DNA from: an uncultured Actinomycetota bacterium
Lineage (GTDB): Bacteria; Actinomycetota; Humimicrobiia; Humimicrobiales; Humimicrobiaceae
Direction of reading: 5' to 3'
Assembly: GCA_964561115.1 (NCBI GenBank)
Contig: CAZLOE010000003.1
Coordinates: 2,691 to 66,690, forward strand
Length of the DNA: 64,000 bases
A model generated the notes under the pieces. That model was not told the DNA's origin. It made no database searches and was given only the letters and a program-made list of their open reading frames with translations. Positions 4,071-53,079 of this stretch are shown piece by piece (the stretch's first letter is position 1; every line of letters starts with the position of its first letter). Made by a program: the position numbers and the translations under genes.

Positions 4071-4130
4071 TATTAAAAATAGTTAAAAATTAAAACAAAA
4101 ACCACCAATTTTAGAAATTATATTATATGC

Positions 4131-4185
4131 GCTTTTAAAAAGCAAAATGGAAAGACAGTTCTTAGAAATCCTGCCTTTCCATTTT
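4131..4185 (-). terminator. putative intrinsic terminator downstream of the lipoprotein gene
   Basis: An 11-bp stem (AAAATGGAAAG/CTTTCCATTTT, 4144-4154 and 4175-4185) is followed on the minus strand by GCTTTTTAAAAG. Confidence 0.35.
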
Positions 4186-4261
4186 ATTTATATCTCTATT
4201 TTTATTTATTCACCTTACATATCAATATTACCTGATTCCACTTATCTGGTTACCCCAAGAT

Positions 4262-4837
4262 TTATTGCTTGGGACCCACATCAAGACTTAGTGTAGTCTC
4301 ACCCTCGTACTCCGAGACTATAACAGATACCTCCAGGGTGCCGTCATTTGCTGTGACATAATAATATTTGTCACCATTGCTTGTGGTTGTTGAGTTATAG
4401 TCAATAGTCCAGCCCGCAGTAGGAAATTGGTACATATACCAATCATACACTTTCTTTCCCGGGTCAGCGGTCTCAAAACCTACCATAAAATATTTGTTAC
4501 CATCCTCTTCCCAGGTCATGGTAGATGTAGGTGTCATATCAGGATATAAGGGAACAACCTTCGGGAATCCCTCAGGCAGTTCTGTACTTAATCCCCAGGA
4601 TGTCTCGCCTTCCTCTGTAGTAATGGTGACCTCATCTCCTGATATATCTACTTCGGCCTGACCGCCTTCACCTTCAATACCCTCTTCTATCGCCGATTCT
4701 ATTGCCTCCTCTGAAATTGATTCTGCGATCCTTTCTCCTACTTTAGAACATCCGCCGGCAGATAATAACAGAAAGGCCGCCAAACTCATTATCAATACCA
4801 GCATTATTGTTTTTTTCATCATAGATCTCCTTGCCAT
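4262..4837 (-). CDS. acidic secreted lipoprotein, function unknown
   Basis: 191 aa. It has a signal peptide and an LSAGGC lipobox, then a Glu-rich region. Confidence 0.7.
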   Translation of the reverse strand: MARRSMMKKTIMLVLIMSLAAFLLLSAGGCSKVGERIAESISEEAIESAIEEGIEGEGGQAEVDISGDEVTITTEEGETSWGLSTELPEGFPKVVPLYPDMTPTSTMTWEEDGNKYFMVGFETADPGKKVYDWYMYQFPTAGWTIDYNSTTTSNGDKYYYVTANDGTLEVSVIVSEYEGETTLSLDVGPKQ

Positions 4838-4949
4838 TAATAGTTATTATTAAGACCACCTCTAATTTTACTAAATTAATATATTTTATAAAACCTCAAC
4901 CTTAGAAAAAACAACAAAATCAAATAAAATTTCCTGGCAAAAAAAGTTT

Positions 4950-6767
4950 TTAATTCTGCCTGTCAATATCTAATTTATAAAAACTCATAAAAGCTTCGCC
5001 CGGTATCTCAACTCTTCCTATCTTTTTCATTCTCTTTTTCCCTGCCTTCTGCTTTTGAAGCACCTTTCTTTTTCTTGTCACATCTCCGCCGTAAAGCCCT
5101 GAAGTGACATCCTTTCTATATGGAGCGACCCTCTCCTTGGCAATCACTCTCTTGCCAATTGCCGCCTGTATTGCTACTTCAAAATTATGCCTTGGTATCA
5201 ACTTCCTTAATTTCTGAGTTATTTCCCTTCCCAGATAGTAGGATTTGTCCTTATGGACTATAATGGAAAGTTCATCGACTTTTTCTCCGGCTACCAGTAT
5301 ATCCAGCTTCACCAGTTCAGAAGGCCTGTATTCAAGAAACCCATAATCCAGTGAGGCAAATCCGGAAGTCACTGACTTCAGCAGATTAAAAAAATCTACA
5401 ATTATCTCAGAAAGCGGTACAGCGTATTTTATCTCGACTCTTTCCAGCGAGATATACTGCATATCCTTGAAACTGCCCCTTTTCTGATTTACCAGCTTCA
5501 TTACTTCTCCGATATAATCCTTGGGGGTGATTATGGTAGCTTCTACATACGGCTCTTCTATTTTTAATATTTTTTCCTGAACAGGAAAATCAGAAGGCCT
5601 CTTTACCTCTATTACCGAATTATCACTCTTTGTTATTCTGTAAACTACGGTAGGGGCTGATGTCAGCAGCTTAAGACCATATTCTCTCTCAAGCCTTTCT
5701 TTTATGATTTCCATATGAAGCAGTCCTAAAAAGCCGCATCTAAAACCAAAACCAAGGGCACTGGATACTTCAGGGACAAAATCCAGAGAAGAATCGCTCA
5801 GTGAAAGTTTACCCAGAGCATCTTTCAGATTCTCGTAATCCCCTCCCTCAAGAACAAACAGGCCGGAGTAGACCATTGGTTTGGGTTTTCTATAACCCGG
5901 GAGGTTTACTGCAGCAGGATCTTTTTTAGAAGTAACAGTATCGCCGACCATAATATTCCCTACTTCCTTGATCCCTGTAATAATATATCCTACTTCACCC
6001 GCGGCAAGGATTTCTTTTTTTATCATATCGGGCCCGAATATTCCCACTTCCTCGACTTCACTATCAAAGCCTTCTCCCATAAATTTGATCCTATCACCCA
6101 TTTTTATGCATCCGTTTACCACTCTTATAAGCACTACCACGCCCCTGTAAGAATTATACTGGGAATCAAAGATCAATGCCTGAAGCGGGTCATCGGGGTT
6201 TCCTTCCGGATGTGGTATATCGCTCACTATTCTTTCCAGTATTCCCCCGATTCCAAAGCCGGTCTTTGCGCTGACTCTAAGTATTTTTTCTTCCTTAATA
6301 CCGAGGACGCTTCCCAGTTCCATTGAGACCTCATCAATCCTTGCACTTTTAAGGTCAATCTTGTTTATGACCGGAATGATCTCCAGATCATTATCAACTG
6401 CCATATAAACATTGGCAAGAGTCTGCGCCTGTATCCCCTGGGTAGCATCAACCACCAGTATGGCACCTTCACAGGCAGCCAGGCTCCTGGAAACTTCATA
6501 GCTGAAATCAACATGGCCGGGCGTATCTATCAGGTTAAATATATACTGCCTGCCGTCTGTCCCACTGTTATAAAGGACCCTGACCGAATGAGCCTTTATG
6601 GTAATACCCCTCTCTCTTTCAAGCTCCATATCATCCAGGAATTGATCCAGCATCTCTCTACGGCTTACCGTTTCAGTTATCTCTAAAACCCTATCAGCCA
6701 ACGTAGATTTGCCATGGTCTATATGAGCGATTATTGAAAAATTTCTTATTAATTTGTTATCCGTCAT
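4950..6767 (-). CDS. lepA: translation elongation factor 4 (LepA)
   Basis: 605 aa. GTPase G1 AHIDHGKST, DTPGHVDF, and the length typical of LepA. Confidence 0.95.
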   Translation of the reverse strand: MTDNKLIRNFSIIAHIDHGKSTLADRVLEITETVSRREMLDQFLDDMELERERGITIKAHSVRVLYNSGTDGRQYIFNLIDTPGHVDFSYEVSRSLAACEGAILVVDATQGIQAQTLANVYMAVDNDLEIIPVINKIDLKSARIDEVSMELGSVLGIKEEKILRVSAKTGFGIGGILERIVSDIPHPEGNPDDPLQALIFDSQYNSYRGVVVLIRVVNGCIKMGDRIKFMGEGFDSEVEEVGIFGPDMIKKEILAAGEVGYIITGIKEVGNIMVGDTVTSKKDPAAVNLPGYRKPKPMVYSGLFVLEGGDYENLKDALGKLSLSDSSLDFVPEVSSALGFGFRCGFLGLLHMEIIKERLEREYGLKLLTSAPTVVYRITKSDNSVIEVKRPSDFPVQEKILKIEEPYVEATIITPKDYIGEVMKLVNQKRGSFKDMQYISLERVEIKYAVPLSEIIVDFFNLLKSVTSGFASLDYGFLEYRPSELVKLDILVAGEKVDELSIIVHKDKSYYLGREITQKLRKLIPRHNFEVAIQAAIGKRVIAKERVAPYRKDVTSGLYGGDVTRKRKVLQKQKAGKKRMKKIGRVEIPGEAFMSFYKLDIDRQN

Positions 6768-6796
6768 AAAATAATAAAATAACTTATTTTAAAAGC

Positions 6797-8371
6797 TTAT
6801 TTATTCTTTCTGAATTTTTTAAATAAATTTACTACAAATTTTATCTCTTCCATTTTAAATAAAAATGTGCAGGCTATATAAATACCGGCACTGACAATAA
6901 TTGCCGAAAGCAAGAGCAGTATAAGCGGCCACAGACCCTGATAGGCATAAGCTTCAAGCCACTCCCATAAAAAATACAGTACAGCACTCATCACAGCCAC
7001 TGCAGCAAGGATCTTGCCGTATGATACAAATATCCTCCTCCCCCCGAAACTTCCGATCTTTTTTCTCAGTATGATTATCAGGATCACCACATTACACAGT
7101 GCGACCAGAGTTGTGGAAAGAGCAAGCCCGCTTACATCCATATATTTTATCAAAACCCAGTCAAGAATAAGGTTGACGACTATTGAGATACTTGCGACCT
7201 TAAGAGGCGTTTTTACATTTTTAAATGCATAGAAGACTCTGTTTAGGATCATAAGCAGGCCAAAGAATAAAAGACCCATGCTGTGAAATATCAAAATAAA
7301 TGCTACCTTTCTTGTATCTCCGGCAGTGAAATTATAATGCTCAAACAGGACTCTTATAATAGGATAGCTTAAGATCATCATACCTGCAGCTGCCGGAATC
7401 ATTATATATCCTATTCCCCTGATACCCAGGGAAAAGCTTTCTTTTATCCCCCTGACATCGTCACCGGCTGCCTGCCTGGATATTAAAGGATACAGCACGG
7501 TCACAATTGCTACGGTAAACACACCGAGCGGCAGATTTGCGACTCTCCATGATAAGGTCAGAGCAGTGGTATTTCCACCTCCAAGATTTAATGCAAAAAA
7601 ATTATCCACACTGTTATTCAGTTGTACCGCACCTAAACTTAAAAGGATGGGCAGCATAAGAGAAAATATTTCTCTTACTCCTTTATGTTTGAAATCGATC
7701 TTAAACCTGTATTTTAAAGGTGATGCTCTAAGCTGGGGTATCTGTATTATAAGATGGAATATTGATCCTATCATTACACCGACAGCCATACTGTATATAC
7801 CCATACGGTTAAAAAGTAAGACCACAAAACCTATGGTAATTATATTCATCACAAAAGGAGCAATCGAGGGTATGGTAAAAATATTATGTGAGTTTAATAT
7901 TCCCGTAGCCAGTCCGGACATAGACAGCAGAACGAGGGAGAATATCATAATTCTATTCATGACTATAAATTTATATACATCCATCTGGTTATTTGCAATT
8001 CTTGTAAGAATAGAACCTATTTCAGGAGAAAAAATAAATATAACAATAGAGATGACAAAAAAAACTACTGCCATTATATTTATGACCGAATTTACAAAAA
8101 TCCTTAAATCATTTTTCCTGTCATTCTTCAAATATGCAGAATAAATGGGTATAAACGCTGCGACTATCAGACTTTCTGCAATTAGTATCCTGAAAAGATT
8201 GGGAATAAAATAAGCCCAGGTAAAAGCATCAGTCTCATAGGTGATGCCAAAATAGCCAGCCATTATCTGATCTCTTACCAGTCCGGATATTTTTGAAAGC
8301 AGAATAGCTATTACCACCATGAATGTGGCACTAAAAATCCTTTTTCTTGACAGTAAATAGTCTTCATCCAT
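6797..8371 (-). CDS. murJ: lipid II flippase MurJ/MviN
   Basis: 524 aa polytopic membrane protein with a MurJ-like N-terminus (KISGLVRDQIMAGYFG). Confidence 0.85.
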   Translation of the reverse strand: MDEDYLLSRKRIFSATFMVVIAILLSKISGLVRDQIMAGYFGITYETDAFTWAYFIPNLFRILIAESLIVAAFIPIYSAYLKNDRKNDLRIFVNSVINIMAVVFFVISIVIFIFSPEIGSILTRIANNQMDVYKFIVMNRIMIFSLVLLSMSGLATGILNSHNIFTIPSIAPFVMNIITIGFVVLLFNRMGIYSMAVGVMIGSIFHLIIQIPQLRASPLKYRFKIDFKHKGVREIFSLMLPILLSLGAVQLNNSVDNFFALNLGGGNTTALTLSWRVANLPLGVFTVAIVTVLYPLISRQAAGDDVRGIKESFSLGIRGIGYIMIPAAAGMMILSYPIIRVLFEHYNFTAGDTRKVAFILIFHSMGLLFFGLLMILNRVFYAFKNVKTPLKVASISIVVNLILDWVLIKYMDVSGLALSTTLVALCNVVILIIILRKKIGSFGGRRIFVSYGKILAAVAVMSAVLYFLWEWLEAYAYQGLWPLILLLLSAIIVSAGIYIACTFLFKMEEIKFVVNLFKKFRKNK

Positions 8372-44205: not shown

Positions 44206-45627
44206 TTATTTTGAATCAGGAGTCCAAATTTTTTCAGTTTTTCCTCCTGCCTTTGTCTTTCCTTTATCAGGTGTCCATATCCCGCTCTTGCTTCCGCTGT
44301 CTGTATTTTTTTCCTCTACAACTTTTGAGCTTTCTACTAATAGATCGATTACTTTTTTTCTTCTGACAGTTTGCTTGACGGTTTCTTTACCCTCAGGTTT
44401 TTGCAGAAATTCCTCTATTTTCTTGACGTAATCTTCCTCTTTATATCTGTTTATAATATCATCTTTTTCCTTTTTAATCTCATCTTCTGAAGGCTCTATA
44501 TTTTTCTTTTCTGCTTTTTCCAGTGCCTTAAAGATCAGGTATTCCTTTACTTCCCTTATCGCCCTTTCCTTGATCTCCTGGTTCAATTTGTCTTCTGAAA
44601 GATTTATTGCCCTGATATAATCAGCTCTTTTTATTTTTTGCTTTTCCAAGCTCTCGTCAATACTTTTATTAATCTGTTCTATCCTGCTTTTTACCATCGC
44701 TACGGGAACATCGTTTTTCATCTTATCCATAATATGGCTCAAAATGTCTCCTACAATCTTTCCTTTTCTAATATTCTTCTTCTGCTTTACCATTCTCTCC
44801 TTAATACTGTCCTTAAAACTTTCTGCATCCTTATAATCACCAAAGTTCTTTAAAAATCCCTCATCTACCTCAGGTAATGCCTTCCTCTTTATTTCCTTTA
44901 TAAAAACACCGAAACTTACCTTCTTGCCAGCAAGCTGTTTATTCTTAATATCACCCGGCAGGGTAAACATTATTTTTTTCTTTTCGCCCTTTTTTAAACC
45001 AACCAGTGAATTCTCAAACTCAGGAAACAGGGTATTGGAACCAACTTCCAGAAGATAGTCTTCAGCACTGCCGTCTTCAAATTTCTTGCCTTCGATTTCT
45101 CCATCAAAATCAAGAGTTACATAATCACCTTTAGCTACGGGCTTGTCATCTTCAACCGGTTCCAATGTAGCAAAGTTGTTTCTTATACTGTTTATCTGAT
45201 TTTCCAACTCCTGGTCAGATACATCGGTCGAAAGCCCTGTGACTTCTATACCCTTATAGTCAGGTAATTTTATTTCCGGTTCCAGCTCTACTTCCACTTC
45301 AAAAACCAGAGGCAGATCTTCCTGAAGCTGGGTTATTTTTACCTTAGGATAATCTATGGTCTTCAGGTCAGATTCCGCAATTATATCAGGATACAATTCA
45401 GATATCAGCAGACTTGAAGCTTCACTCAGCACATAATTCTTACCAAAATTTACATCTATCACCTGATAGGGTATCTTTCCCTTTCTAAAGCCGGGGATAT
45501 TAGCTTTATTGGATATTTTTTTATATGCTTTGCCAATATTTTTCTTTAAAGAACTATTGGGAACCTCTATGATCAATTTGACCTTGTTTAAATCAATCTT
45601 TTCCTGGCTCTTTATTTTGAAAATCAA
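44206..45627 (-). CDS. tig: trigger factor
   Basis: 473 aa with a PPIase domain, upstream of clpP-clpX. Confidence 0.9.
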
Positions 45628-45744
45628 ATAAAATCCTCCTCAAATATCTAAAGCAGCAAAGTCATATTTCAATATTAAGACTCATATTATAATAGAAAAC
45701 AAATAAAATACAAACCACCGTTCTATAGTCTTTTGGAAGCTGAA

Positions 45745-45867
45745 TGGTGCGAGAGAGGGGACTTGGTCTTTCGTCTCGCTTCGCTCGCTGCAGAGCCGCG
45801 GACTCCCTCGTCTGCGACTCAGTCCGTCCATTCAAGTCCCGTAAAACATGCACTTATGGCATGTTTT
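45745..45867 (-). ncRNA. tRNA-3'-end-linked structured element, copy A
   Basis: 45745-45765 is an exact copy of tRNA-Leu positions 45910-45930. A conserved scaffold (TCTTTCGTCTC...TCGCTGCAGAG...TCCCTC...TCAGTCCG) follows. The copy ends with a 9-bp hairpin (45843-45867). Strand is undetermined. Confidence 0.6.
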
Positions 45868-45909
45868 CCACATTAACTTATAAATCCACTTTAAAAATTA
45901 TATCTTTTC

Positions 45910-45996
45910 TGGTGCGAGAGAGGGGACTTGAACCCCTACAGGTGTTACCCCACTAGATCCTAAGTCTAGCGCGTCTGCCAATTCCGCCACTCTCGC
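45910..45996 (-). tRNA. tRNA-Leu (anticodon TAG), encoded CCA
   Basis: 87 nt cloverleaf with acceptor GCGAGAG/CTCTCGC, anticodon loop CTTAGGA, a long variable arm and a 3' CCA. Confidence 0.9.
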
Positions 45997-46001
45997 ATAA
46001 G

Positions 46002-46077
46002 TGGTGAGCCGTACAGGGATCGAACCTGTGACACCCTGATTAAGAGTCAGGTGCTCTACCAGCTGAGCTAACGGCCC
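46002..46077 (-). tRNA. tRNA-Lys (anticodon CTT), encoded CCA
   Basis: 76 nt with anticodon stem CCTGA/TCAGG, loop CTCTTAA and T-loop TTCGATC. Confidence 0.85.
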
Positions 46078-46092
46078 ACCTATATATAAATC

Positions 46093-46211
46093 TGGCACGC
46101 CTGGAGGGATTCGTTCTTTCGTCTCGCTTTGCTCGCTGCAGAGACGCGAGCTCCCTCATCTTCGATTCAGTCCGCTCTTTCGAATCCTGAAAACATGCCA
46201 CCGGCATGTTT
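46093..46211 (-). ncRNA. tRNA-3'-end-linked structured element, copy B
   Basis: 46093-46113 is an exact copy of tRNA-Arg(TCG) positions 46257-46277. The same conserved scaffold follows, ending in a hairpin at 46191-46211. Confidence 0.6.
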
Positions 46212-46256
46212 CCCCTGCCTACCTTGAACGTACCTATCGTTTTATATATATAAATA

Positions 46257-46333
46257 TGGCACGCCTGGAGGGATTCGAACCCCCGACGCACGGATTCGAA
46301 GTCCGACGCTCTATCCACCTGAGCTACAGGCGC
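46257..46333 (-). tRNA. tRNA-Arg (anticodon TCG), encoded CCA
   Basis: 77 nt with anticodon loop CTTCGAA and T-loop TTCGAAT. Confidence 0.8.
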
Positions 46334-46345
46334 AGGGTTTAAATA

Positions 46346-46422
46346 TGGGGTGAGAAACGGGGATCGAACCCGCGACCCCAGGATCCACAATCCTGTGCTC
46401 TACCAGCTGAGCTATTCTCACC
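46346..46422 (-). tRNA. tRNA-His (anticodon GTG), genome-encoded G-1 and CCA
   Basis: Anticodon loop TTGTGGA. An extra 5' G pairs with C73 to give the 8-bp acceptor stem typical of tRNA-His. Confidence 0.85.
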
Positions 46423-46489
46423 ATTTAATACTTTAAAAAACAAATTCTTACAGTTACATTACCCGATATTATTCCAAAACTTACAAATA

Positions 46490-46566
<77 letters not shown>

Positions 46567-46813
46567 AAAAACCCTAATATAATAATTATTATAGCAAATA
46601 AAATTTTATTATTAAAAAATGCCGGCAGTCCCTAAACCTCTCAAAACCAGATTAATACTTTAGTTAATATCATACCATAAGTCAAGGACGGTTTTAGCCG
46701 TAAAAAAATCTAAAACGGTTTCAAAATGCTATATCTGGCTTCTTTTATCTCATGCTTTAAACATGATAAAATAAATCAGTTAGACAGTATTAAAAACTAC
46801 GACAGGAGAACAA

Positions 46814-47101
46814 ATGGACTTTCTTATTGCCGCTTCTTCAACTATGATGACATCGCTACTGGTACTCTTTACTACAGTAGTTTTTTGTTTCATAATGCTT
46901 GGTTTTTTAATCAGTCTGGGATTGTTTGTACTGTGGATCATTACTCTTATAGATTGCGTAAGGAGAGATAATAAGGATTTTGTCTTCGGGGGCAAGGACG
47001 CTAAAGTACTCTGGATCCTTCTTCTGATCTTTTTCCGCCAAATCGCACCTATCATCTACTATTTACTTATAATGTATAAAAAAGGGGGGAAACCTAAATA
47101 G
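46814..47101 (+). CDS. small membrane protein, PLD-nuclease N-terminal (PLDc_N) domain family
   Basis: 95 aa with two TM helices flanking the motif WIITLIDCVRRDNKDF..GKDAKVLWILL. It is on the opposite strand inside the tRNA cluster. Confidence 0.55.
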   Translation: MDFLIAASSTMMTSLLVLFTTVVFCFIMLGFLISLGLFVLWIITLIDCVRRDNKDFVFGGKDAKVLWILLLIFFRQIAPIIYYLLIMYKKGGKPK

Positions 47102-47105
47102 AAAA

Positions 47106-47182
47106 TGGAGCGGGAAACGGGATTCGAACCCGCGACCCTCAGCTTGGAAGGCTGACGCTCTAGCCAACTGAGCTATTCCCGC
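47106..47182 (-). tRNA. tRNA-Gly (anticodon TCC), encoded CCA
   Basis: Acceptor GCGGGAA and anticodon loop CTTCCAA. Confidence 0.9.
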
Positions 47183-47187
47183 TCAAA

Positions 47188-47266
47188 TGGTCGGGGTGAG
47201 AGGATTTGAACCTCCGACCCCCTGCTCCCAAAGCAGGTGCGCTAAACCAAACTGCGCTACACCCCG
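47188..47266 (-). tRNA. tRNA-Pro (anticodon TGG), encoded CCA
   Basis: Acceptor CGGGGTG/CACCCCG, anticodon loop TTTGGGA with G37. Confidence 0.85.
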
Positions 47267-47309
47267 GCTGTACCGACCGATCCTTTAGCACAAAAATAAT
47301 ATCATAATT

Positions 47310-47906
47310 CTAAAAATTTACAATAAACTCACATACTGCCTTGATCGCCTTGCCCCTGTGGCTGATTCTGTTTTTTTCCTCCCGATCCAGTTGAGCCATC
47401 GTCCTTTTATATCCGGAAGGAATAAAGATACAGTCATAACCAAATCCGCCGGTTCCCTTTTCTTTAAAACCTATATGGCCGCTGCAAACACCTCTGGCTT
47501 CAAAAACAGGGCCTTTTCCAGGATCCCACAATACCATACTACATACAAACCTGGCTTTTCTATCGGAAATCTTTTTTGCATTTTTCAGTTCAGCCATCAG
47601 CTTATCCCTGTTCTCTTTATCCGAAGCATACACACCCGCATATCTTGATGATCTTACTCCCGGCCTGCCTCCTAAAAAATCAACCTCAAGTCCCGAGTCA
47701 TCAGCAAGGGTAATAATACCTGTACATTCAGAAATGGCTTTTGCTTTTAGTTTTGCGTTTTCTAAAAAGCTGTTTCCCTTCTCCTCTATATCCGGAAAAG
47801 CTTTAAAGTCTTTAAAAGTCAGCCATTCTACCTTTGGCAGGCGGCAGGCATATGATTTTATCTCTTTTATTTTCCCGGTATTTTTTGAAGCAATGACTAT
47901 CTGCAA
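47310..47906 (-). CDS. rdgB: non-canonical purine NTP pyrophosphatase (RdgB/HAM1)
   Basis: 198 aa with the SKN.GK N-terminal motif. Confidence 0.9.
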   Translation of the reverse strand: MQIVIASKNTGKIKEIKSYACRLPKVEWLTFKDFKAFPDIEEKGNSFLENAKLKAKAISECTGIITLADDSGLEVDFLGGRPGVRSSRYAGVYASDKENRDKLMAELKNAKKISDRKARFVCSMVLWDPGKGPVFEARGVCSGHIGFKEKGTGGFGYDCIFIPSGYKRTMAQLDREEKNRISHRGKAIKAVCEFIVNF

Positions 47907-47946
47907 AAGACCTGAACCTTTACTTTTAAATAATAAAAAGTGATGA

Positions 47947-48675
47947 TTATATGCTTTTATTTAATGTTTTCTTTTGGATATCTATAATTTCTGCGATTGC
48001 GGCAGCTGCCTTCTCCATCATCCTGTCAAAATCTTCCCTTCTGAAAGGAGTTATTTCCGCAGTAGACTGGACTTCAATCAGCTCATTTTTTGAGTTCATT
48101 ACCACATTCATATCCACCTGTGCTTTTGAATCTTCTTCAAAACAGAGGTCTACCAGTATATTCCCGTCGACTATACCAATACTTACAGCAGCCAAAAAAC
48201 TCTCTATAGGCATCTCACTGATTATTTTTTTATCGACCAGCGAGTGCATGCAATCAAAAAGAGCAATGAAGCTTCCGGTTATAGATGCAGTCCTGGTCCC
48301 GCCGTCAGCTTCAATAACATCGCAATCTATCCATATTGTCCTTTCGCCGATCTTGGCAAGATCGGCAATACTCCTAAGCGATCTGCCGATAAGTCTCTGT
48401 ATCTCATGAGTCCTGCCGTTGATCCTGCCCACAGTCTGGGGCCTTATAATTCTCTGGGGAGCAGAACCAGGTATCATGTCATACTCTGCAGTGATCCAGC
48501 CCGATCCTTTTCCGGCTAAAAATTTAGGAATTTTATCCTCAACAGTAGCTGTGCATACAATCCTTGTATTCCCCATCTCAATAAACACAGAACCTTCGGT
48601 ATGCGAAATATAATTTCTGGTTATTTTTATCTCTCTTATTTCATCATCTTTCCTGCCGTCAATTCTTTTACCCAT
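47947..48675 (-). CDS. rph: ribonuclease PH
   Basis: 242 aa with GRxDGR and the RNase PH fold (TAEYDMIPGS...GRTHEIQRLIGR). Confidence 0.95.
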   Translation of the reverse strand: MGKRIDGRKDDEIREIKITRNYISHTEGSVFIEMGNTRIVCTATVEDKIPKFLAGKGSGWITAEYDMIPGSAPQRIIRPQTVGRINGRTHEIQRLIGRSLRSIADLAKIGERTIWIDCDVIEADGGTRTASITGSFIALFDCMHSLVDKKIISEMPIESFLAAVSIGIVDGNILVDLCFEEDSKAQVDMNVVMNSKNELIEVQSTAEITPFRREDFDRMMEKAAAAIAEIIDIQKKTLNKSI

Positions 48676-48711
48676 TAGTTTCTACCTTTCCCTTTAATGT
48701 AAAAATATAAC

Positions 48712-49518
48712 TTATATATCAAGCCTGGTTCTTATGACTTCCTTTATCTCTGAACCCAAAAACATCTTCCCTACTTTAAAGAAATTACTTACTATACCGG
48801 TTTCATAAAAAATTCTATCTGGCTTATTGCCTCTCCCGGCAGAAATTCCTTTTTCGGAAAGCACTTTCTTTACATCCTTGGCAGTCTCCACTGCAGAGCT
48901 TATTACCCTGATGCCGTCACCGCTGCAGGCTAAAATCTGCTTCTCGATCAGTGGAAAATGGGTACAGCCCATTATCAATACATCAATATCGGCTTCAAAT
49001 AACGACTTTAAATAGCCGCATATGGCTTTATTAAGATCCCTTCCCTCGAGAATTCCTTTTTCTACAAAATCTACCAGTAATGGAGCAGGTACCGAAAATG
49101 TCTTTATATCAGGGTCTATCCCTGCAATCTCTTTATCGTAGGCCTTGCTTTCAATCGTGCCTTTGGTAGCAATAACACCCACTCTTTTGTTTTTGGTATT
49201 ATAAACAGCCGTCCTGGCACCCGGCTCTATCACACCTATGACAGGTATGTCATTATATTTTTTCTTTATGTCTTTTAGAGCTGCGGCAGCGGCGGTATTA
49301 CAGGCAATAACGATAAGTTTTATATCTTTATCATAAAGGAACCTGGTTATTTTAAAAGCAAGTCTCTTGACCTCACCCAGATCACGGGGGCCGTAGGGGA
49401 ACCGCTCGGTATCCCCAAAATATATGGTACTCTCATCAGGAACAGCTTTGATTGTTTCCCGCAGTACAGTCAGTCCGCCTACACCAGAATCAAACACTCC
49501 AATGGCTCTGTTGTCCAA
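48712..49518 (-). CDS. murI: glutamate racemase
   Basis: 268 aa with VFDSGVGGLTV and CNTA. Confidence 0.9.
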   Translation of the reverse strand: MDNRAIGVFDSGVGGLTVLRETIKAVPDESTIYFGDTERFPYGPRDLGEVKRLAFKITRFLYDKDIKLIVIACNTAAAAALKDIKKKYNDIPVIGVIEPGARTAVYNTKNKRVGVIATKGTIESKAYDKEIAGIDPDIKTFSVPAPLLVDFVEKGILEGRDLNKAICGYLKSLFEADIDVLIMGCTHFPLIEKQILACSGDGIRVISSAVETAKDVKKVLSEKGISAGRGNKPDRIFYETGIVSNFFKVGKMFLGSEIKEVIRTRLDI

Positions 49519-49657
49519 GTCTTTTCTTTCTATTCATTTATTAATATTTTATAGAACTTCTTAAAATTAAAAAACTCTCTATTTAATGAACCAGGGTTTT
49601 TAATTCACTAATTATATAATTTTAATAAAAAATAAAAAATGTTTTATGACCAAGCGT

Positions 49658-51136
49658 TTAAATTGTGGAGATAAATTTCTTTTTCTCTTTTAGGCATAAA
49701 TGCTTAATAGTTCTCCTTGCATGTGCCATACACATGGGTACACCACCACCGGGACAAACCCATTGACCAGTCATATAAAAGTTTCTTAGTTTAGGCAACT
49801 CCCTGGGCAGGAACTTTCCAAACAATTTAACTGTGGGGAGCCAACCCTGATAGGAACCCTGCCAGTTGCCTGTATATCTCTCCCAGGTAACCGGAGTAGC
49901 TATATCCGTTACTTCGATCTGCCTCCTTATACCGGGCAGTTTCTTTTCCAGTTTTCGAAGGCATATACTTAAGACCTTAGCTTTTTCCGCATTGTATTTT
50001 CTTTTATTTTTATGAATCGATTTCCAGTAATCATAATCGGATTCTATCTGGATTTTTATAACACTTTTTCCCTTAGGAGCAAAAGCGGGATCGTGACAGA
50101 AATGAAAATAACCCATCCATTCCCATTTTCTGCCGGCAATCAGAACCGGGTCATCAAGCTTAAAATTATTGATCTCCACTTTACCTGATAAATCCCGGTC
50201 GACCCCCAGACTTATGGATATGATGGGCGGCCATAAGCTGGGTTTTTGATACATTTTCTTAATCTGTGGCGTCAGGTACTTTCCCTGCAGCATTCTGTAT
50301 AATGTCAATCTGCCGTCACAGGCTGAAACAACTATATCTGCATAGATCTTTTTACCCTTTTCTGTCTCTATTCCCACTATCGTATTATTTCTTATGAGTA
50401 TCCTTTTAACTCTTTGATTATAATTGATCCTTCCTCCCAGAGATTTATAACGTTTTTCAACTGCACGGGCAAAATGAAGTGAACCGCCCCAGGGGTAGCC
50501 ACCCTCATGATTATGAAAATATGCCAGTGGCATAACCACCATCAATGCCGGCATGTTTTTAACCGGAAACATCTGAAAAAGCATTTCCCTTAAATCTTTA
50601 TTTTTAAACATTCCGAGAAAATCTTCTATCCTGGTATTTTTAAGTTTTATAAACGACGGCATGAACGGCAGCATTTTCAGAATATCACGCAGGCCAAAAT
50701 TACCAAAATCCGCATCCATCGGCGGCTTGAACCCTGTATAAAAACGAACTATACAGATCAATTTTCTAATTGATCTTTCTTCATCAGGAAATAATCTTAG
50801 AAGTTCACTTTCAAATTTATCCAGGTCGGTATAGACAGTAAGGCTTTTACCGCCAATATCAATTTTTCGAAACCGTTCCGTATAATAAAATTTTATGTTA
50901 TCTGCAATACCCAGCTCTTTAAAAAGGCCGTAAATGGAGCTGCTCTTATTCGATCCCAGTACCCAGTGCAGGCAGTGGTCAAAAAGGTACTCTCCGCGTC
51001 TCCACGAGGTACAGACACCGCCGGGAATATTATTCATCTCGTAAATTTCTGAATTATAACCATTCATCTGCGCATAACATCCCGCTGAAAGACCTGATAT
51101 TCCAGCTCCGATAATACACATTTTTTTCATAGTCAA
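49658..51136 (-). CDS. FAD-dependent oxidoreductase, phytoene desaturase (CrtI/CrtN-like) family
   Basis: 492 aa. N-terminal dinucleotide-binding motif IIGAGISGLSAG. The overall length and C-terminal motifs fit amine-oxidase/CrtI-like enzymes. Confidence 0.65.
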   Translation of the reverse strand: MTMKKMCIIGAGISGLSAGCYAQMNGYNSEIYEMNNIPGGVCTSWRRGEYLFDHCLHWVLGSNKSSSIYGLFKELGIADNIKFYYTERFRKIDIGGKSLTVYTDLDKFESELLRLFPDEERSIRKLICIVRFYTGFKPPMDADFGNFGLRDILKMLPFMPSFIKLKNTRIEDFLGMFKNKDLREMLFQMFPVKNMPALMVVMPLAYFHNHEGGYPWGGSLHFARAVEKRYKSLGGRINYNQRVKRILIRNNTIVGIETEKGKKIYADIVVSACDGRLTLYRMLQGKYLTPQIKKMYQKPSLWPPIISISLGVDRDLSGKVEINNFKLDDPVLIAGRKWEWMGYFHFCHDPAFAPKGKSVIKIQIESDYDYWKSIHKNKRKYNAEKAKVLSICLRKLEKKLPGIRRQIEVTDIATPVTWERYTGNWQGSYQGWLPTVKLFGKFLPRELPKLRNFYMTGQWVCPGGGVPMCMAHARRTIKHLCLKEKKKFISTI

Positions 51137-51233
51137 ATTTCCTTTATCATAATCTAAATATTAATATGCAATCTCCGGCCACTTGTATATAGATCTTAAC
51201 CAAGCCAATAAAATATATCACAAATTCATCCTT

Positions 51234-52016
51234 TTATCTTAACTCTTCTTTAAGTACCTGATAGAACCTTCCTCTTGCATAATGCTCAACCCAGGGGTGG
51301 TGTCCGCACTTTTTGAGCAAAATAAAACGAAAATCCTTAAGGACTCCGGAGAGAGGTTCCCTTACTCCTTCAGCAGGATGGGGATCATAATCACCGTGTA
51401 GAGCAACAACCGGGCATTTTATTTGTGCACCCAGTTTTAAAAGCTTGCCGCTGTCTCTAAGTCTCTCTGCATCCTTCCATACATACTCAAAAACATTAAA
51501 CTGGCACTCCAGTATCTCACTCTTGCAGGATACAGGGCTATAAGAGTCAGCCTTTGATATCAACTCTCCAAACCTGCACATAATAGTATCTTTATCTGCC
51601 GTATCTGGATCACTCAATTTTCTCATAAGGTCCAGGGCTTCCGATCTCTCTTTATCGCTGAAACGGCTTAATCTTGTCTCAGTTATTTGCGCAGCATATT
51701 TTTTATCAAATACTGCGCTTCCTACTATTATGAGTTTTTTTATCAGTGAAGGATATCTTGCGGTAAGAATAAAGCCGAGCATCGCACCCCACGACCAGCC
51801 GATCAGCACCATAGGTAAATCCCCATTTTCCTCAAGGATCCTTTGTAATTCCTGTACCTGACCTTCAAGTGATGCTGCTGTCTGAAGCGGTTCCAGAATG
51901 CCACGATCAGTGGACAGCTCCCTTGCTACCGGAGCCATTTCCCCCGGTGCACCAGGCCCGCCATGCAATACAGCAATACTAAAAGGCGGCCCCCCATATT
52001 TTCTTGGATTTTCCAT
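51234..52016 (-). CDS. alpha/beta hydrolase (esterase/lipase fold)
   Basis: 260 aa with the nucleophile elbow GWSWG and later His/Asp residues. Confidence 0.7.
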   Translation of the reverse strand: MENPRKYGGPPFSIAVLHGGPGAPGEMAPVARELSTDRGILEPLQTAASLEGQVQELQRILEENGDLPMVLIGWSWGAMLGFILTARYPSLIKKLIIVGSAVFDKKYAAQITETRLSRFSDKERSEALDLMRKLSDPDTADKDTIMCRFGELISKADSYSPVSCKSEILECQFNVFEYVWKDAERLRDSGKLLKLGAQIKCPVVALHGDYDPHPAEGVREPLSGVLKDFRFILLKKCGHHPWVEHYARGRFYQVLKEELR

Positions 52017-52033
52017 ACTTTAAATTAGAAAAT

Positions 52034-52155
52034 TGGTGGAGGCGGCGGGAATCGTTCTTTCGTCTCCCTCCGGTCGCTGCAGAGACGCAGACTCCCTCGC
52101 TAAAGCTCAGTCCGTCTTTTCGATTCCTGGAAAACATGGATCCACCATGTTTTCC
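52034..52155 (-). ncRNA. tRNA-3'-end-linked structured element, copy C (tmRNA-associated)
   Basis: 52034-52054 is an exact copy of tmRNA 3' end 52196-52216. The same conserved scaffold follows, ending in an 11-bp hairpin at 52129-52155. Confidence 0.6.
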
Positions 52156-52195
52156 TTACATAGTATCAGGTTACCTGATAACCAGTATAGATATC

Positions 52196-52543
52196 TGGTG
52201 GAGGCGGCGGGAATCGAACCCGCGTCCGAAGATATTGACACCTAGATATCTACAAGCTTATTCCACATTTTAATCTTACTTTTTCACTCGCATGGACGCG
52301 ATTAAAAAAGCCAGCCCGCATAAAATTTCCCCCGGTACTGCTGCAGGCATATCATACCGGAGTATCCTGCTAACCGGCGCCTGTCGAAAAGCACAGGAGA
52401 CCTTTCGCAGACGTAGCAGCTTAAATTAAGCTGCTAATGCTAATTTATTATTAGCGTTTATTTATAGTTCAGTTATTTACGAGTTCTGATACTCGACTTG
52501 CAATCCAAGCTCAACCTATCCCCGTCGAATCCAAGTCGCCCCC
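52196..52543 (-). ncRNA. ssrA: transfer-messenger RNA (tmRNA)
   Basis: The 5' end GGGGGCGACUUGGAUUCGACGGGG pairs with the 3' end ...CGCCUCCACCA, including a G3-U70 pair. T-arm GCGGGUUCGAUUCCCGC. Tag reading frame GCU AAU AAU AAA UUA GCA UUA GCA GCU UAA (ANNKLALAA). It lies immediately downstream of smpB. Confidence 0.9.
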
Positions 52544-52587
52544 TTATTGCAGATAAGACCTCAGATTTAACGCCAGGATATTTTATA

Positions 52588-53079
52588 TCAAAACCGGTTA
52601 TTTTTCAAAGCCCTTTTTATTTCAATCTCATGTTCCCTGTCCTGTATATCTCTGCGCTTGTCTCTCCCTGCTTTGCCTTTTGCCAGCGCCATTTCGATCT
52701 TGACCCTGTTCTTTACCATATACACACTCAAGGGCACGAGGGTAACACTTTTATCAATTAATTTTTGTGTTATTTTTTTTATCTCCCTTTTATGCATAAG
52801 AAGCTTCCTGGTCCTGGTGGGATTTATATCTTCAGTCCTGCTCTTTCCGTAAGGAGATATATGCATATTAAAAAGAAACAGCTGACCGTCTTTTATCCGA
52901 CCGTAACTGTCCCTCAAGTTCAACCTATGGCTGCGGATGGATTTTACCTCACATCCTTCCAGCACAATACCGGCTTCATAAGTGTCTAAAATAAAAAAAT
53001 TCCTTAAGGCTCTCTTATTCTGGGCGATTATTATCTTACTTTCTCCGGAATTACCCTTGTTTTTTGATCTATTCATCAA
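52588..53079 (-). CDS. smpB: SsrA-binding protein SmpB
   Basis: 163 aa: ...IAQNKRALRNFFILDTYEAGIVLEGCEVKSIR... Confidence 0.95.
   Translation of the reverse strand: MMNRSKNKGNSGESKIIIAQNKRALRNFFILDTYEAGIVLEGCEVKSIRSHRLNLRDSYGRIKDGQLFLFNMHISPYGKSRTEDINPTRTRKLLMHKREIKKITQKLIDKSVTLVPLSVYMVKNRVKIEMALAKGKAGRDKRRDIQDREHEIEIKRALKNNRF

Follow-up and report, generated by a model that had tools for sequence, protein, structure and literature searches.

In an uncultured lineage of actinobacteria, we found, downstream of tRNA and tmRNA genes, a family of units of ~165 nt, each of which starts directly after the CCA of the gene, lies on the same strand as the gene, and ends in a 21-nt tail corresponding to tRNA C56-A76. 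The family is specific to this lineage and is new to Rfam and to the literature searched, and covariation shows that it maintains a conserved fold on the tRNA-sense strand. Tentatively, and with slightly less than even confidence, we read the units as small non-autonomous elements of ~165 bp for which tRNA gene 3' ends serve as homing sites, and which carry a structured RNA matched to their target. On the most conservative reading, they form a large, well-supported structured RNA family with an obligatory link to tRNA/tmRNA transcripts, hosted by a poorly known, uncultured class of Actinomycetota.

Results

Three copies in the window

The stretch of DNA analyzed (the window, 64,000 nt) contains three copies, A, B, and C, which follow tRNA-Leu(TAG), tRNA-Arg(TCG), and tmRNA, respectively (Table 1). 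Re-alignment confirmed the coordinates and the boundary of the three repeats reported in the initial annotation: each tail is identical to the adjacent 3' end at 21/21 positions, starting at C56, immediately after the break at T55, and running to A76 of the encoded CCA. The 21-mer is preceded by GGTT in the real genes versus GA(A/C) in the copies. The near-constant spacing of the repeats was likewise upheld, with periods of 165, 164, and 162 nt for copies A, B, and C, and the DNA between repeats (144 bp) has no ORF. An identity of exactly 21 nt is correct for copies A and C but not for copy B, in which it runs past the CCA through one mismatch and then 11 matching bases, 33 nt in total. At L079, a locus in a related MAG, a partial second unit is arranged as after tail B and has its own sequence variant. 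The architecture had been drawn on the plus strand; however, the tRNA genes, the tmRNA, and all elements in the window are on the minus strand, so that the element comes after the tRNA and ends in the tRNA-derived 21-mer. Within the window, the conserved blocks match at these 3 sites only, and 0 of 100 shuffles gave any match.

Table 1. Positions of the tRNA/tmRNA genes and of the parts of copies A, B, and C in the window
Feature	Position	Strand	Remarks
tRNA-Leu(TAG) gene	45910..45996	-	ARAGORN, Rfam tRNA; last 21 nt, 45910-45930 (C56-A76), are the proximal repeat copy for copy A
Copy A spacer, part of the element	45871..45909	-	Spacer subfamilies common to different tRNAs
Copy A hairpin TGGAAAACATGCC..GCATGTTTTAC, terminator-like	45841..45870	-	Two-sided changes in 8/10 pairs, 101 copies
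Copy A arm GGGACTTGAA	45831..45840	-	Reverse-complementary to tRNA-Leu T54-C63; helix P1 with tail nt 1-8
Copy A P2 domain, GGAC GGACTGA .. GAGGGA GTCC	45800..45830	-	Base stem covaries; apical hairpin variable
Copy A GCG, K (G, 45796), P3 (CTCTGCAGCGA..GAG), ACGAAAGA, M (C, 45766)	45766..45799	-	K pairs with M
Copy A tail CAAGTCCCCTCTCTCGCACCA	45745..45765	-	Exact copy of tRNA-Leu C56-A76
tRNA-Arg(TCG) gene	46257..46333	-	ARAGORN, Rfam; last 21 nt, 46257-46277, are the proximal repeat copy for copy B
Copy B spacer	46215..46256	-	Subfamily 'NNTTTRTATA..TAAAACG..GGTA'; in other genomes at tRNA-Trp, Arg, Lys, Asp
Copy B hairpin	46188..46214	-	Expression of tRNA-Lys and tRNA-Leu downstream requires read-through
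Copy B arm GGATTCGAA	46179..46187	-	Complementary to tRNA-Arg T54-C62
Copy B P2 domain	46148..46178	-	Base stem GAGC/GCTC covaries with GGAC/GTCC (copy A) and AGAC/GTCT (copy C)
Copy B GCG, K (T, 46144), P3, ACGAAAGA, M (A, 46114)	46114..46147	-	
Copy B tail CGAATCCCTCCAGGCGTGCCA	46093..46113	-	Exact copy of tRNA-Arg(TCG) C56-A76
Partial second unit start after tail B, 12 nt GATTTATATATA	46081..46092	-	11/12 identical to first 12 nt of the spacer; tRNA-Lys 3 nt later
tmRNA gene	52196..52543	-	ARAGORN; Rfam RF00023, 221 bits; last 21 nt, 52196-52216, are the proximal repeat copy for copy C
Copy C spacer	52157..52195	-	
Copy C hairpin AGGAAAACATGGTGGATCCATGTTTTCCA	52128..52156	-	
Copy C arm GGAATCGAA	52119..52127	-	Complementary to tmRNA T-loop TTCGATTCC
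Copy C P2 domain	52089..52118	-	
Copy C GCG, K (T, 52085), P3, ACGAAAGA, M (A, 52055)	52055..52088	-	
Copy C tail CGATTCCCGCCGCCTCCACCA	52034..52054	-	Exact copy of tmRNA 3' end

Copy B must be transcribed together with its tRNA array, as part of the tRNA precursor transcript, since the only promoter-like site of this array lies at 46615-46588 (-) and tRNA-Lys and tRNA-Leu can be reached only by reading through the hairpin of the element. No terminator was reported when the element hairpin was scanned for consensus intrinsic terminators, because its U tract is mostly inside the stem. In L073, a group II intron lies 6-8 nt after the hairpin, at a kind of site that class C introns use.

A lineage-specific family linked to tRNA 3' ends

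The copy count proposed in the initial annotation, made here by scanning two public collections, one of genomes and one of metagenomes, gave about 300 copies in MAGs labelled Actinomycetota, Humimicrobiaceae, or Hydromicrobium. The occupied targets comprise roughly 20 tRNA isoacceptors plus tmRNA. Over both collections, the tail matches the tRNA about 145 nt upstream exactly (21/21) in 173 of 199 distinct testable copies, which supports the view of a conserved scaffold joined to a locus-specific tRNA 3' segment rather than an ordinary repeat. In the genome collection, for 100 of ~138 copies the exact 21-mer recurs 137-202 nt upstream, where it closes a tRNA called by ARAGORN, with most exceptions at contig edges, and the metagenomes contributed 93 additional copies. 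This pattern of tail-tRNA matches is far beyond chance. Across all loci (213), downstream duplicates of a tRNA 3' end have the module before them, with nine exceptions explained by N-masking, a mutated module, or a second tRNA gene; no solo tail of the kind that excision would leave was found.

Rfam cmscan of positions 45000-53000 with E up to 1 returned only tRNA, tmRNA, and weak chance hits and left the element without a match, and the family is not described in the literature searched, in agreement with the initial annotation, which did not recognize the motif. A phage origin was rejected, with 0 matches in viral contigs.

A conserved fold on the tRNA-sense strand

From the tRNA-CCA onward, the unit consists of a ~42-nt spacer, a hairpin, an arm of 8-10 nt, two conserved hairpin domains, and the 21-nt tail. 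The arm (GGGACTTGAA, GGATTCGAA, and GGAATCGAA in copies A to C), which was absent from the initial annotation, is reverse-complementary to tRNA positions 54-63, and it forms helix P1 with the opening 7-8 nt of the 21-mer. This arm-tail complementarity is present in 81 of 83 unselected units, and AA always comes next after the arm. Made of the locus-specific arm and the first 8 nt of the tail, P1 is the closing helix of a ~75-nt three-way-junction RNA, in which the invariant 8-nt strands UGCAGCGA and ACGAAAGA stand on either side of P3. For the decoy or antisense RNA considered in the initial annotation, the relevant observation is that the tail is in the tRNA sense, which leaves the arm as the sole antisense part. 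A near-invariant GGA in the arm limits the target range.

Across 101 copies, 96.0% of base-pair cells are paired versus 84.3% in shuffles, and the covariation score is 0.362 versus 0.150 in shuffles, matched by 0 of 500 shuffles, with slid controls scoring 0.04-0.09. The K:M pair is UA in 52 and GC in 48 of the 101 copies, one pair is U·G in 46, and most pairs of the hairpin have changed on both sides (Table 1), with a pair-type tally of about 29 G·U versus 5 A·C. Since the G·U pairs occur on one strand only, the fold is placed on the tRNA-sense strand. Short ORFs on the opposite strand in L040 and L054 were ruled out as protein coding by indels in P2/P3 that are not multiples of three and by stem covariation.

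The last 13 nt of the tail (acceptor 3' strand and CCA) have no partner within the unit, their complementarity being no higher than in controls, and a pseudoknot or tRNA-like acceptor formed by them was rejected on the same grounds. In the predicted fold of the co-transcript, the arm can pair with the T-loop of the tRNA itself and the tail can replace the 3' strand of the tRNA.

Turnover, arrays, and descent

The spacer had been described as nonconserved, but its types are shared between different tRNAs and between genomes. Since they recur at unrelated tRNAs, the spacer belongs to the element, and the idea that it is native flank, which would make a target duplication of ~63 bp, was rejected. 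Moreover, identical cores are found with different, matched combinations of arm and tail. A given tRNA can carry a unit in some genomes and, with identical sequence, lack one in close relatives, the two states being separated by clean 165-bp indels, so the empty sites anticipated in relatives do exist; the comparison includes tRNA-Arg(TCT) and tRNA-Pro(TGG) of the window itself. Contigs frequently end at the element, as they do at repeats.

Arrays of one, two, and three units number 140, 8, and 2, respectively. A partial next unit of variable length terminates 53 of 158 arrays, and almost all of these partial units keep the spacer-side (5') part; alternatively, they could be simple deletions. 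Among nearest neighbors with at most 6% divergence, 67 of 70 are at the same tRNA, indicating that movement between tRNAs is slow. Distances based on the core only had suggested free mixing between tRNAs, which whole-unit distances corrected to mostly vertical descent. In vertically inherited orthologues, such as L019 and L112, compensatory changes preserve the fold.

Neighboring genes and islands

Among about 300 copies, no recombinase, transposase, TnpB, or reverse-transcriptase gene is consistently beside the element, which extends the earlier remark that no recombinase, TnpB, or Cas gene is nearby. Clustering of the ORFs around the copies gave housekeeping genes only. No autonomous relative sharing the core was found, and no long ORF lies upstream of any core; there is no IntI integrase or attI in the window or the loci, and the units are without a gene. 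Kilobase cargo at four loci was rejected as an autonomous element or cassette, being an insertion-sequence transposase in L111, a group II intron with a reverse-transcriptase gene in L073, and, in L040 and L054, ordinary islands inserted in the tail between two units, for which the tails were used as attachment sites. Two candidate mobilizers were also rejected: a resolvase (serine recombinase) fragment in L040, which has no relative near other copies and belongs to a separate island, and a large serine recombinase in L036, L057, and L130, which is a separate element, overlapping tRNA-Leu at its 5' half.

Discussion

The reading that we tentatively favor is that of small elements homing to tRNA gene 3' ends. 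They would spread to new tRNA genes via insertion aimed at the T-loop-to-CCA segment, leaving the tRNA intact and producing the 21-nt direct repeats, by means of an enzyme presumably encoded elsewhere in the genome. The arm, and probably also the single-stranded tail, may recognize the target by base pairing with both strands of the tRNA gene; alternatively, arm and tail may offer the enzyme a folded replica of the target. Copying seems precise at its start, after a CCA, and imprecise at its end; in a third of the arrays, the last element is the beginning of one more unit. Once established, copies are mostly passed on vertically and retain their fold. Against such homing, if the 21-mer travels with the element and is not a duplicate of target sequence, a move to a new tRNA would have to begin with a chimeric tRNA, so that retargeting is hard to explain, and we know of no precedent for a 21-nt target duplication.

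Within this scenario it is possible, although rather doubtful, that the RNA itself picks the landing site of a new insertion system, one that homes to the stretch of tRNA genes from T-loop to CCA. In this scheme, the antisense strand would be invaded by the single-stranded tail while the freed arm pairs with the sense strand, and cuts or joins at both edges of the 21-bp hybrid would generate the 21-nt duplication, catalyzed either by a protein enzyme or by the RNA at the M|C56 junction. Since the tail of each new copy would have the sequence of the target itself, every insertion would rewrite the guide.

Retention of the fold in vertically inherited copies fits a host-useful role at least as well as a selfish one, and the module may be a cis-acting RNA that serves the host, a domesticated part of the tRNA/tmRNA transcription unit that spread by occasional duplication and was kept by selection locus by locus. 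It might act in forming 3' ends, in termination, in processing that detaches the tRNA from the RNAs behind it, or as a sensor or sponge of tRNA 3' fragments starting in the T-loop. Consistent with this are the compensatory changes between orthologues (L019 versus L112), the 67 of 70 close neighbors at the same tRNA, the intactness of 96% of base-pair cells in 101 copies, the position of copy B inside a housekeeping tRNA array with which it must be co-transcribed, the predicted co-transcript fold, and the continued identity of the tail with the tRNA, even though the last 13 nt of the tail find no partner within the unit. We nevertheless consider it unlikely: identical tRNA 3' ends, including tRNA-Arg(TCT) and tRNA-Pro(TGG) of the window, are occupied or empty among close relatives, so the module is dispensable, tandem arrays and truncated extra units are unexpected for a processing signal, subfamilies cut across tRNA identity, and contigs often break at the element, as they do at repeats. 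A T-loop-to-CCA direct repeat is the classic mark of integrase-mediated insertion into tRNA genes, and this repeat, the clean 165-bp indels, the tandem accretion, and the use of tails as attachment sites by ordinary islands (L040 and L054) would all suit a naked attP or its footprint, in which a tyrosine or serine integrase supplied in trans recombines a ~165-bp circle, carrying the last 21 bp of the tRNA, with the tRNA T-loop. The conserved core would then be protein-binding arm sites, possibly acting on folded single-stranded DNA, as in integron attC or CTX phage, and the arm-tail complementarity does resemble the pairing of inverse core and core in attC. Yet an integrase adjoins no copy, and the stems covary with arbitrary sequence and have G·U pairs on one strand only, which argues for folded RNA or a single strand and not for protein sites on a duplex; one family would also need about 20 different core sequences, a chimeric tRNA would arise first each time a new tRNA is entered, and a site-specific crossover predicts exact unit numbers, in contrast to the 53 of 158 arrays that end in partial units of variable length. 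These points make a naked attP distinctly unlikely in our assessment. The miniature integrative element with an att-like 21-bp core proposed in the initial annotation accounts for the indels, the tandem arrays, and the T-loop boundary, but leaves the covarying sense-strand fold, the arm that tracks the T-loop, and the frequent partial units unexplained.

By analogy with retrozymes or viroid-like repeats, the unit might instead be a self-cleaving/self-ligating ribozyme, in which P1 and K:M would hold the M|C56 junction in a continuous helix for cleavage or ligation; a reverse transcriptase acting in trans would copy unit-length or circular RNA, and the concatemeric cDNA would recombine at the cognate tRNA gene. 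The M|C56 boundary would be a nick position inside stacked helices, with the invariant UGCAGCGA and ACGAAAGA flanking P3, non-integer arrays with a precise start and a variable end would fit rolling-circle copying, and a group II intron with a reverse-transcriptase gene is present in the lineage (L073). Ribozymes beside tRNA genes also have a precedent in theta ribozymes, which are reported to lie next to tRNA genes (bioRxiv 10.1101/2023.06.13.544163). However, no Rfam ribozyme family, hammerhead, twister, pistol, hatchet, and HDV-like among them, matched at E up to 1, and the sequence could not be threaded manually onto a hammerhead or HDV-like core. Although the motifs CUGA..GA and CGAAA hint at such cores, the helix order, the base at position 17, and the presence of two hairpins between the P1 strands are at odds with them. 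Most loci, moreover, have a single unit and thus only one M|C56 junction, so that a circle cannot be released, and we regard a ribozyme unit as very unlikely. An OMEGA-type ωRNA of a non-autonomous IS200/IS605-like element, with a scaffold, a 3' guide taken from the flank, GGTT as TAM, and TnpA/TnpB supplied in trans, is in our opinion highly improbable. It would agree with a scaffold whose next ~21 nt equal the sequence after GGTT in the empty site, with the single orientation relative to the tRNA, and with a geometry like that of the IS608 right end, where a hairpin and a linker are accompanied by pairing of the hairpin-foot base with the last base of the element; here these are the P3 hairpin, a 9-nt linker, and covarying K (5' of the hairpin foot) and M (the last base of the element). 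GGTT does precede every target, and it is universal in T-loops. On the other side, tnpA/tnpB adjoins no copy, there is no autonomous relative with the core, no match was found to Rfam, including any curated ωRNA-type models there, and P1 takes up the first 8 nt of what would be the guide. Motif and target both survive in the intact tRNA after insertion, which would expose the host genome to cutting by its own nuclease, and IS200/IS605 elements insert without a duplication. The element may be a guide-RNA-like gene, as put forward in the initial annotation, but not one of a known OMEGA family, given the missing Rfam match, about 300 copies with no TnpB/IscB beside them, and the paired first 8 guide nt.

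If elements homing to tRNA genes are indeed what we see, the family would be a compact (~100 nt), naturally reprogrammed RNA module that addresses about 20 tRNA genes by 1-3 base changes in the arm and the copying of 21 target bases. It would represent a new route by which a mobile element finds safe insertion sites and leaves them undamaged, and a lead to a trans-acting enzyme or ribozyme activity that recognizes an RNA-specified DNA site. The duplicated tRNA tails also serve as additional attachment sites for ordinary genomic islands.

Comparison with known systems

Several known systems share part of this organization. Retrozymes, tandem small-ribozyme repeats, and theta/HDV-like ribozymes near tRNAs are alike in units of ~165 nt that are sometimes tandem, a compact conserved three-way junction, and an association with tRNA transcripts, but the element here has no known ribozyme core recognized by Rfam or manual threading and mostly a single unit per locus. 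Integron attC sites likewise have a 5' segment complementary to a 3' segment, which in attC holds the crossover point, are defined by fold and not by sequence, and form head-to-tail units beside a fixed attachment point; the element differs in having no IntI gene, many tRNA attachment points, and almost exclusively gene-less units, and its G·U pairs and co-transcription point to RNA. The homing guide RNAs of type V-K CRISPR-associated transposons target tRNA genes, and they resemble the element in an RNA segment that matches the 3' part of a tRNA beside a GGTT-like motif and in insertion downstream of an intact tRNA. The element, in contrast, has no Cas12k, Tn7 genes, or CRISPR repeat, is inserted at the CCA and not about 60 bp away, and is a 165-bp unit.

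The ωRNAs of IS200/IS605 elements with TnpB and their miniature derivatives (PATEs) also have a scaffold followed by a 3' segment equal to flanking DNA, a small non-autonomous form, subterminal hairpins, and pairing of a hairpin-foot base with the terminal base, whereas the element here lacks a nearby TnpA/TnpB and an Rfam match, has the start of its 'guide' paired, and is set apart by the 21-nt duplication and by a target that is intact after insertion. Islands, prophages, and cis-mobilizable elements at tRNA/tmRNA genes, which use tyrosine integrases and the T-loop sublocation, share the direct repeat of the tRNA 3' end from T-loop to CCA, the intact tRNA, tandem accretion at one gene, tmRNA as a target, and occupied and empty alleles. 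There, one integrase family uses one or a few att cores, whereas one closely related family here occupies about 20 tRNA sequences, with only 144 bp between repeats and neither integrase nor cargo. Instead, the element has a covarying single-strand fold that includes the repeat, an arm that tracks the T-loop, and arrays with variable ends.

Anatomy and distribution of the element

We found that the three copies in the window belong to a family of structured, co-transcribed RNA modules linked to the 3' ends of tRNA and tmRNA genes. Each module has an arm matched to its target and a tail that duplicates it, and units of 165 bp are gained or lost as a whole. The minus strand of the window carries seven tRNA genes and one tmRNA gene (ARAGORN), and copies A, B, and C follow tRNA-Leu(TAG), tRNA-Arg(TCG), and the tmRNA gene, respectively. 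As the initial annotation stated, the three 21-mers are the exact last 21 nt of these genes, from C56 to A76 with the encoded CCA included. Read in the tRNA sense, each locus runs from tRNA-CCA through a spacer of ~40 nt, a hairpin (AAAACATG..CATGTTTT), the arm, two conserved hairpin domains, ACGAAAGA, and a single base, M, to the 21-nt tail. The conserved blocks are confined to these three sites in the window, with 0 matches in shuffles. The arm was overlooked at first. Across the three copies it reads GGGACTTGAA, GGATTCGAA, and GGAATCGAA, in each case the reverse complement of tRNA positions 54-63, and it forms base pairs with the tail's first 7-8 nt. A repeat length of exactly 21 nt holds for the tRNA-tail identity in all three copies but not for copy B as a whole, where 11 further matches follow past one mismatch. 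The spacer had been taken as nonconserved, but the same spacer and hairpin types, copy B's among them, recur at other tRNAs and in other genomes, so that the spacer belongs to the element.

A single pattern that combines two of the conserved blocks matched at least 118 stretches in a scan of one genome per species and at least 120 in JGI metagenomes, with 0 matches in the viral contigs scanned. Nearly all genome matches listed are in MAGs labelled Actinomycetota, Candidatus Humimicrobiaceae/Humimicrobium, or Hydromicrobium, with a few bins under other names. Among these listed matches, a same-strand tRNA or tmRNA 3' end lying 137-202 nt upstream carries the exact 21-mer in 100 of ~138 copies; copies without it lie mostly at contig edges, and metagenome copies follow the same pattern. 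Across the matches listed from both sets, the expectation that each copy carries a 21-mer matching a nearby tRNA was borne out exactly in 173 of 199 distinct testable copies. The others differ from the tRNA at 1-4 positions, most frequently C74: this first C of CCA accounts for 7 of ~38 mismatches and position 75 for 2 more (e.g., L014, L045, L048, L059, L147, and L217). Many contigs break off inside the element, as expected of an assembly-breaking repeat, and in the genome collection N runs inside tRNA genes or tandem units (L009, L022, L025, L032, L091, and L104) hide some copies and may look like partial units. Identity of the window is 99.6% to L173, a metagenome contig, and ~85% to L079, from a MAG whose annotation reads uncultured Actinomycetota bacterium.

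The element was confirmed at tRNAs for Ala, three Arg, Asp, Gln, Glu(CTC), three Leu, Lys(TTT), Met, three Pro, at least three Ser, Trp, and Tyr, and at tmRNA. GGA is present in nearly every arm, where it pairs with U60 C61 C62, and tRNAs with other bases at 60-62 (Phe, Glu(TTC), His, Val, and Lys(CTT)) are never occupied in the loci collected. Nor do these loci include any solo tail: wherever a tRNA 3' end is duplicated downstream, a module precedes the duplicate.

Coordinates of features in the window and at individual loci
Locus	Feature	Position	Remark
Window	tRNA-Arg(TCT)	46490-46566	Empty; 3' end identical to tRNA occupied elsewhere
Window	tRNA-Pro(TGG)	47188-47266	Empty; 3' end identical to tRNA occupied elsewhere
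Window	tmRNA gene	52196-52543	Tag ANNKLALAA; element follows
Window	smpB	52588-53079	Directly upstream of tmRNA gene
L073	Occupied locus	3867-6060	
L073	tRNA-Pro	3867-3944	
L073	Group II intron, 5' end	near 4020	
L073	Module core	near 5935-5968	
L040	Island	4266-7291	Flanked by intact 21-nt tail and 7-9-nt remnant of second tail
L054	Island	1-2880	Flanked by intact 21-nt tail and 7-9-nt remnant of second tail
L130	Large serine recombinase gene	709-2392	~546 aa
L146	tRNA-Pro	~2128-2205	

Conserved fold, and transcription of copy B

The fold was evaluated on an alignment of 101 distinct copies with 500 shuffles as control. The hairpin has 10 pairs, 8 of them with changes on both sides. P1, the arm-tail helix, has 8 pairs, the inner 7 without any broken cell in copies that were themselves chosen by a 6-nt arm match; in an unselected set, arm and tail are complementary in 81 of 83. 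Covariation is also seen in the base stem of P2 (AU 55, GC 41), in the short inner stem of P3 (AU 51, GC 40, CG 7), and between M and K, the base before P3 (UA 52, GC 48, one exception). Overall, 96.0% of cells are paired against 84.3% in shuffles, and the covariation score of 0.362 (shuffled, 0.150) was reached by 0 of 500 shuffles and falls to 0.04-0.09 when partners are slid by 1-3 columns. One position is U·G in 46 of 101 copies, and in the hairpin G·U outnumbers A·C by ~29 to ~5 (our own count from the listed pair types), placing the fold on the tRNA-sense strand. RNA is thus the natural reading of the folding molecule, with folded single-stranded DNA as the alternative. No partner within the unit was found for the last 13 nt of the tail, and no Rfam family matches the element. 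In a predicted fold of the whole co-transcript, a computed alternative only, the arm pairs with the T-loop of the tRNA itself, and the tRNA 5' strand pairs with the distal tail. Copies differ in the length of the apical part of P2, which is sometimes missing; this excludes a protein-coding element.

In the tRNA array, the sole promoter-like site lies upstream of tRNA-Arg(TCT), and tRNA-Lys starts 15 nt past tail B; copy B and its hairpin must therefore be within the precursor transcript. A consensus terminator scan did not call the element hairpin. Neighboring genes in the window have housekeeping functions (trigger factor, ClpP, RNase PH, and SmpB), and an alpha/beta hydrolase gene begins 17 nt past the tail of the tmRNA copy.

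Gain, loss, and inheritance

For Arg(TCT), Pro(TGG), Lys(TTT), Ala(GGC), and tmRNA, some genomes carry the element and others lack it at 3' ends of identical sequence. The window's own tRNA-Arg(TCT) and tRNA-Pro(TGG) thus provide empty-site controls. The initial annotation had proposed a look for empty sites in relatives; in two comparisons, occupied and empty sites differ by a clean indel, one or two units and 21 nt long, and the native flank is preserved: tRNA-Arg(TCT) is empty in the window and occupied in L079, whose post-tail flank aligns with the window's post-tRNA flank, and the tmRNA gene is empty in L081 and occupied in L005.

There are 140 arrays of one unit, 8 of two, and 2 of three. 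Of 158 arrays, 82 have a final repeat that stops at 21-23 nt, and in 53 it runs for at least 29 nt, into the start of a further unit, copy B being a short example of such a partial terminal unit. Since one truncated unit is common to two MAGs, truncated units are real and old. In every case the left edge (CCA, then spacer) is exact; the right edge varies, an asymmetry that suggests copying that starts precisely and ends loosely, with deletions as the alternative. Remnants keeping the 3' part are far rarer than those keeping the 5' part; one, in L146, is an isolated fragment ~66 nt after a complete core, consisting of P3 and the first 5 nt of a tail.

With divergence measured on whole units with arms masked, units at most 6% divergent share their tRNA in 67 of 70 cases; at 6-15%, 20 cases share a tRNA versus 26 that do not, and above 15% different tRNAs dominate. 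Inheritance is thus mostly vertical, with target switches rarer. Identical cores with different, correctly matched arms and tails occur in L101 versus L118 and in L017, L026, and L033.

Other mobile elements at occupied loci

At a few loci, kilobases separate the tRNA from the module, and none of the cargo genes there is a candidate enzyme for the family. Between tRNA-Arg and module in L111, within the unit's spacer, a 624-aa ORF on the opposite strand looks, by eye from its N-terminal sequence, like a putative IS1634/IS4-type transposase. In L073, a group II intron starting with GTGCG lies 6-8 nt past the element hairpin, within the arm, and carries a reverse-transcriptase ORF with a YADD motif; class C introns pick terminator-like stem-loops as sites. 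The islands of L040 and L054 are ordinary ones, with genes that include a resolvase fragment, an AAA_14/DUF4143 ATPase, a HicAB toxin-antitoxin pair, and unknown secreted proteins; a normal spacer and module come after the second-tail remnant. These islands evidently attached at a tail, the duplicated tails giving other mobile elements additional places to attach. In L038, a GDSL lipase and two unknown proteins lie between tRNA-Met and module. In L130, L057, and L036, which are independent assemblies, a large serine recombinase gene ends in the 5' half of tRNA-Leu(CAG), with an overlap of ~43 nt in L130; it has the look of a separate element on the 5' side of this tRNA.

Nature of the element

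Our preferred but tentative reading is a nonautonomous mobile element, in which arm and tail would specify or present the target and the enzyme would be encoded elsewhere. Its main rival, a cis-acting RNA serving the host, is supported by vertical descent with the fold preserved, yet we regard it as unlikely. The remaining readings each cover part of the anatomy, but each fails a test that defines it: a classical integrase acting on a naked attP is somewhat less probable again, a ribozyme or retrozyme-like unit is improbable, and an OMEGA-type guide RNA is the least probable of all.

Full-text searches and one preprint, an incomplete coverage of the literature, yielded no description of a similar element. 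The combination of features is absent from every known system that could be tested. The 21-nt repeat alone is the classic feature of integrase elements; unlike them, this family has a fold built on the repeat, an arm that tracks the T-loop sequence, and a range of targets.
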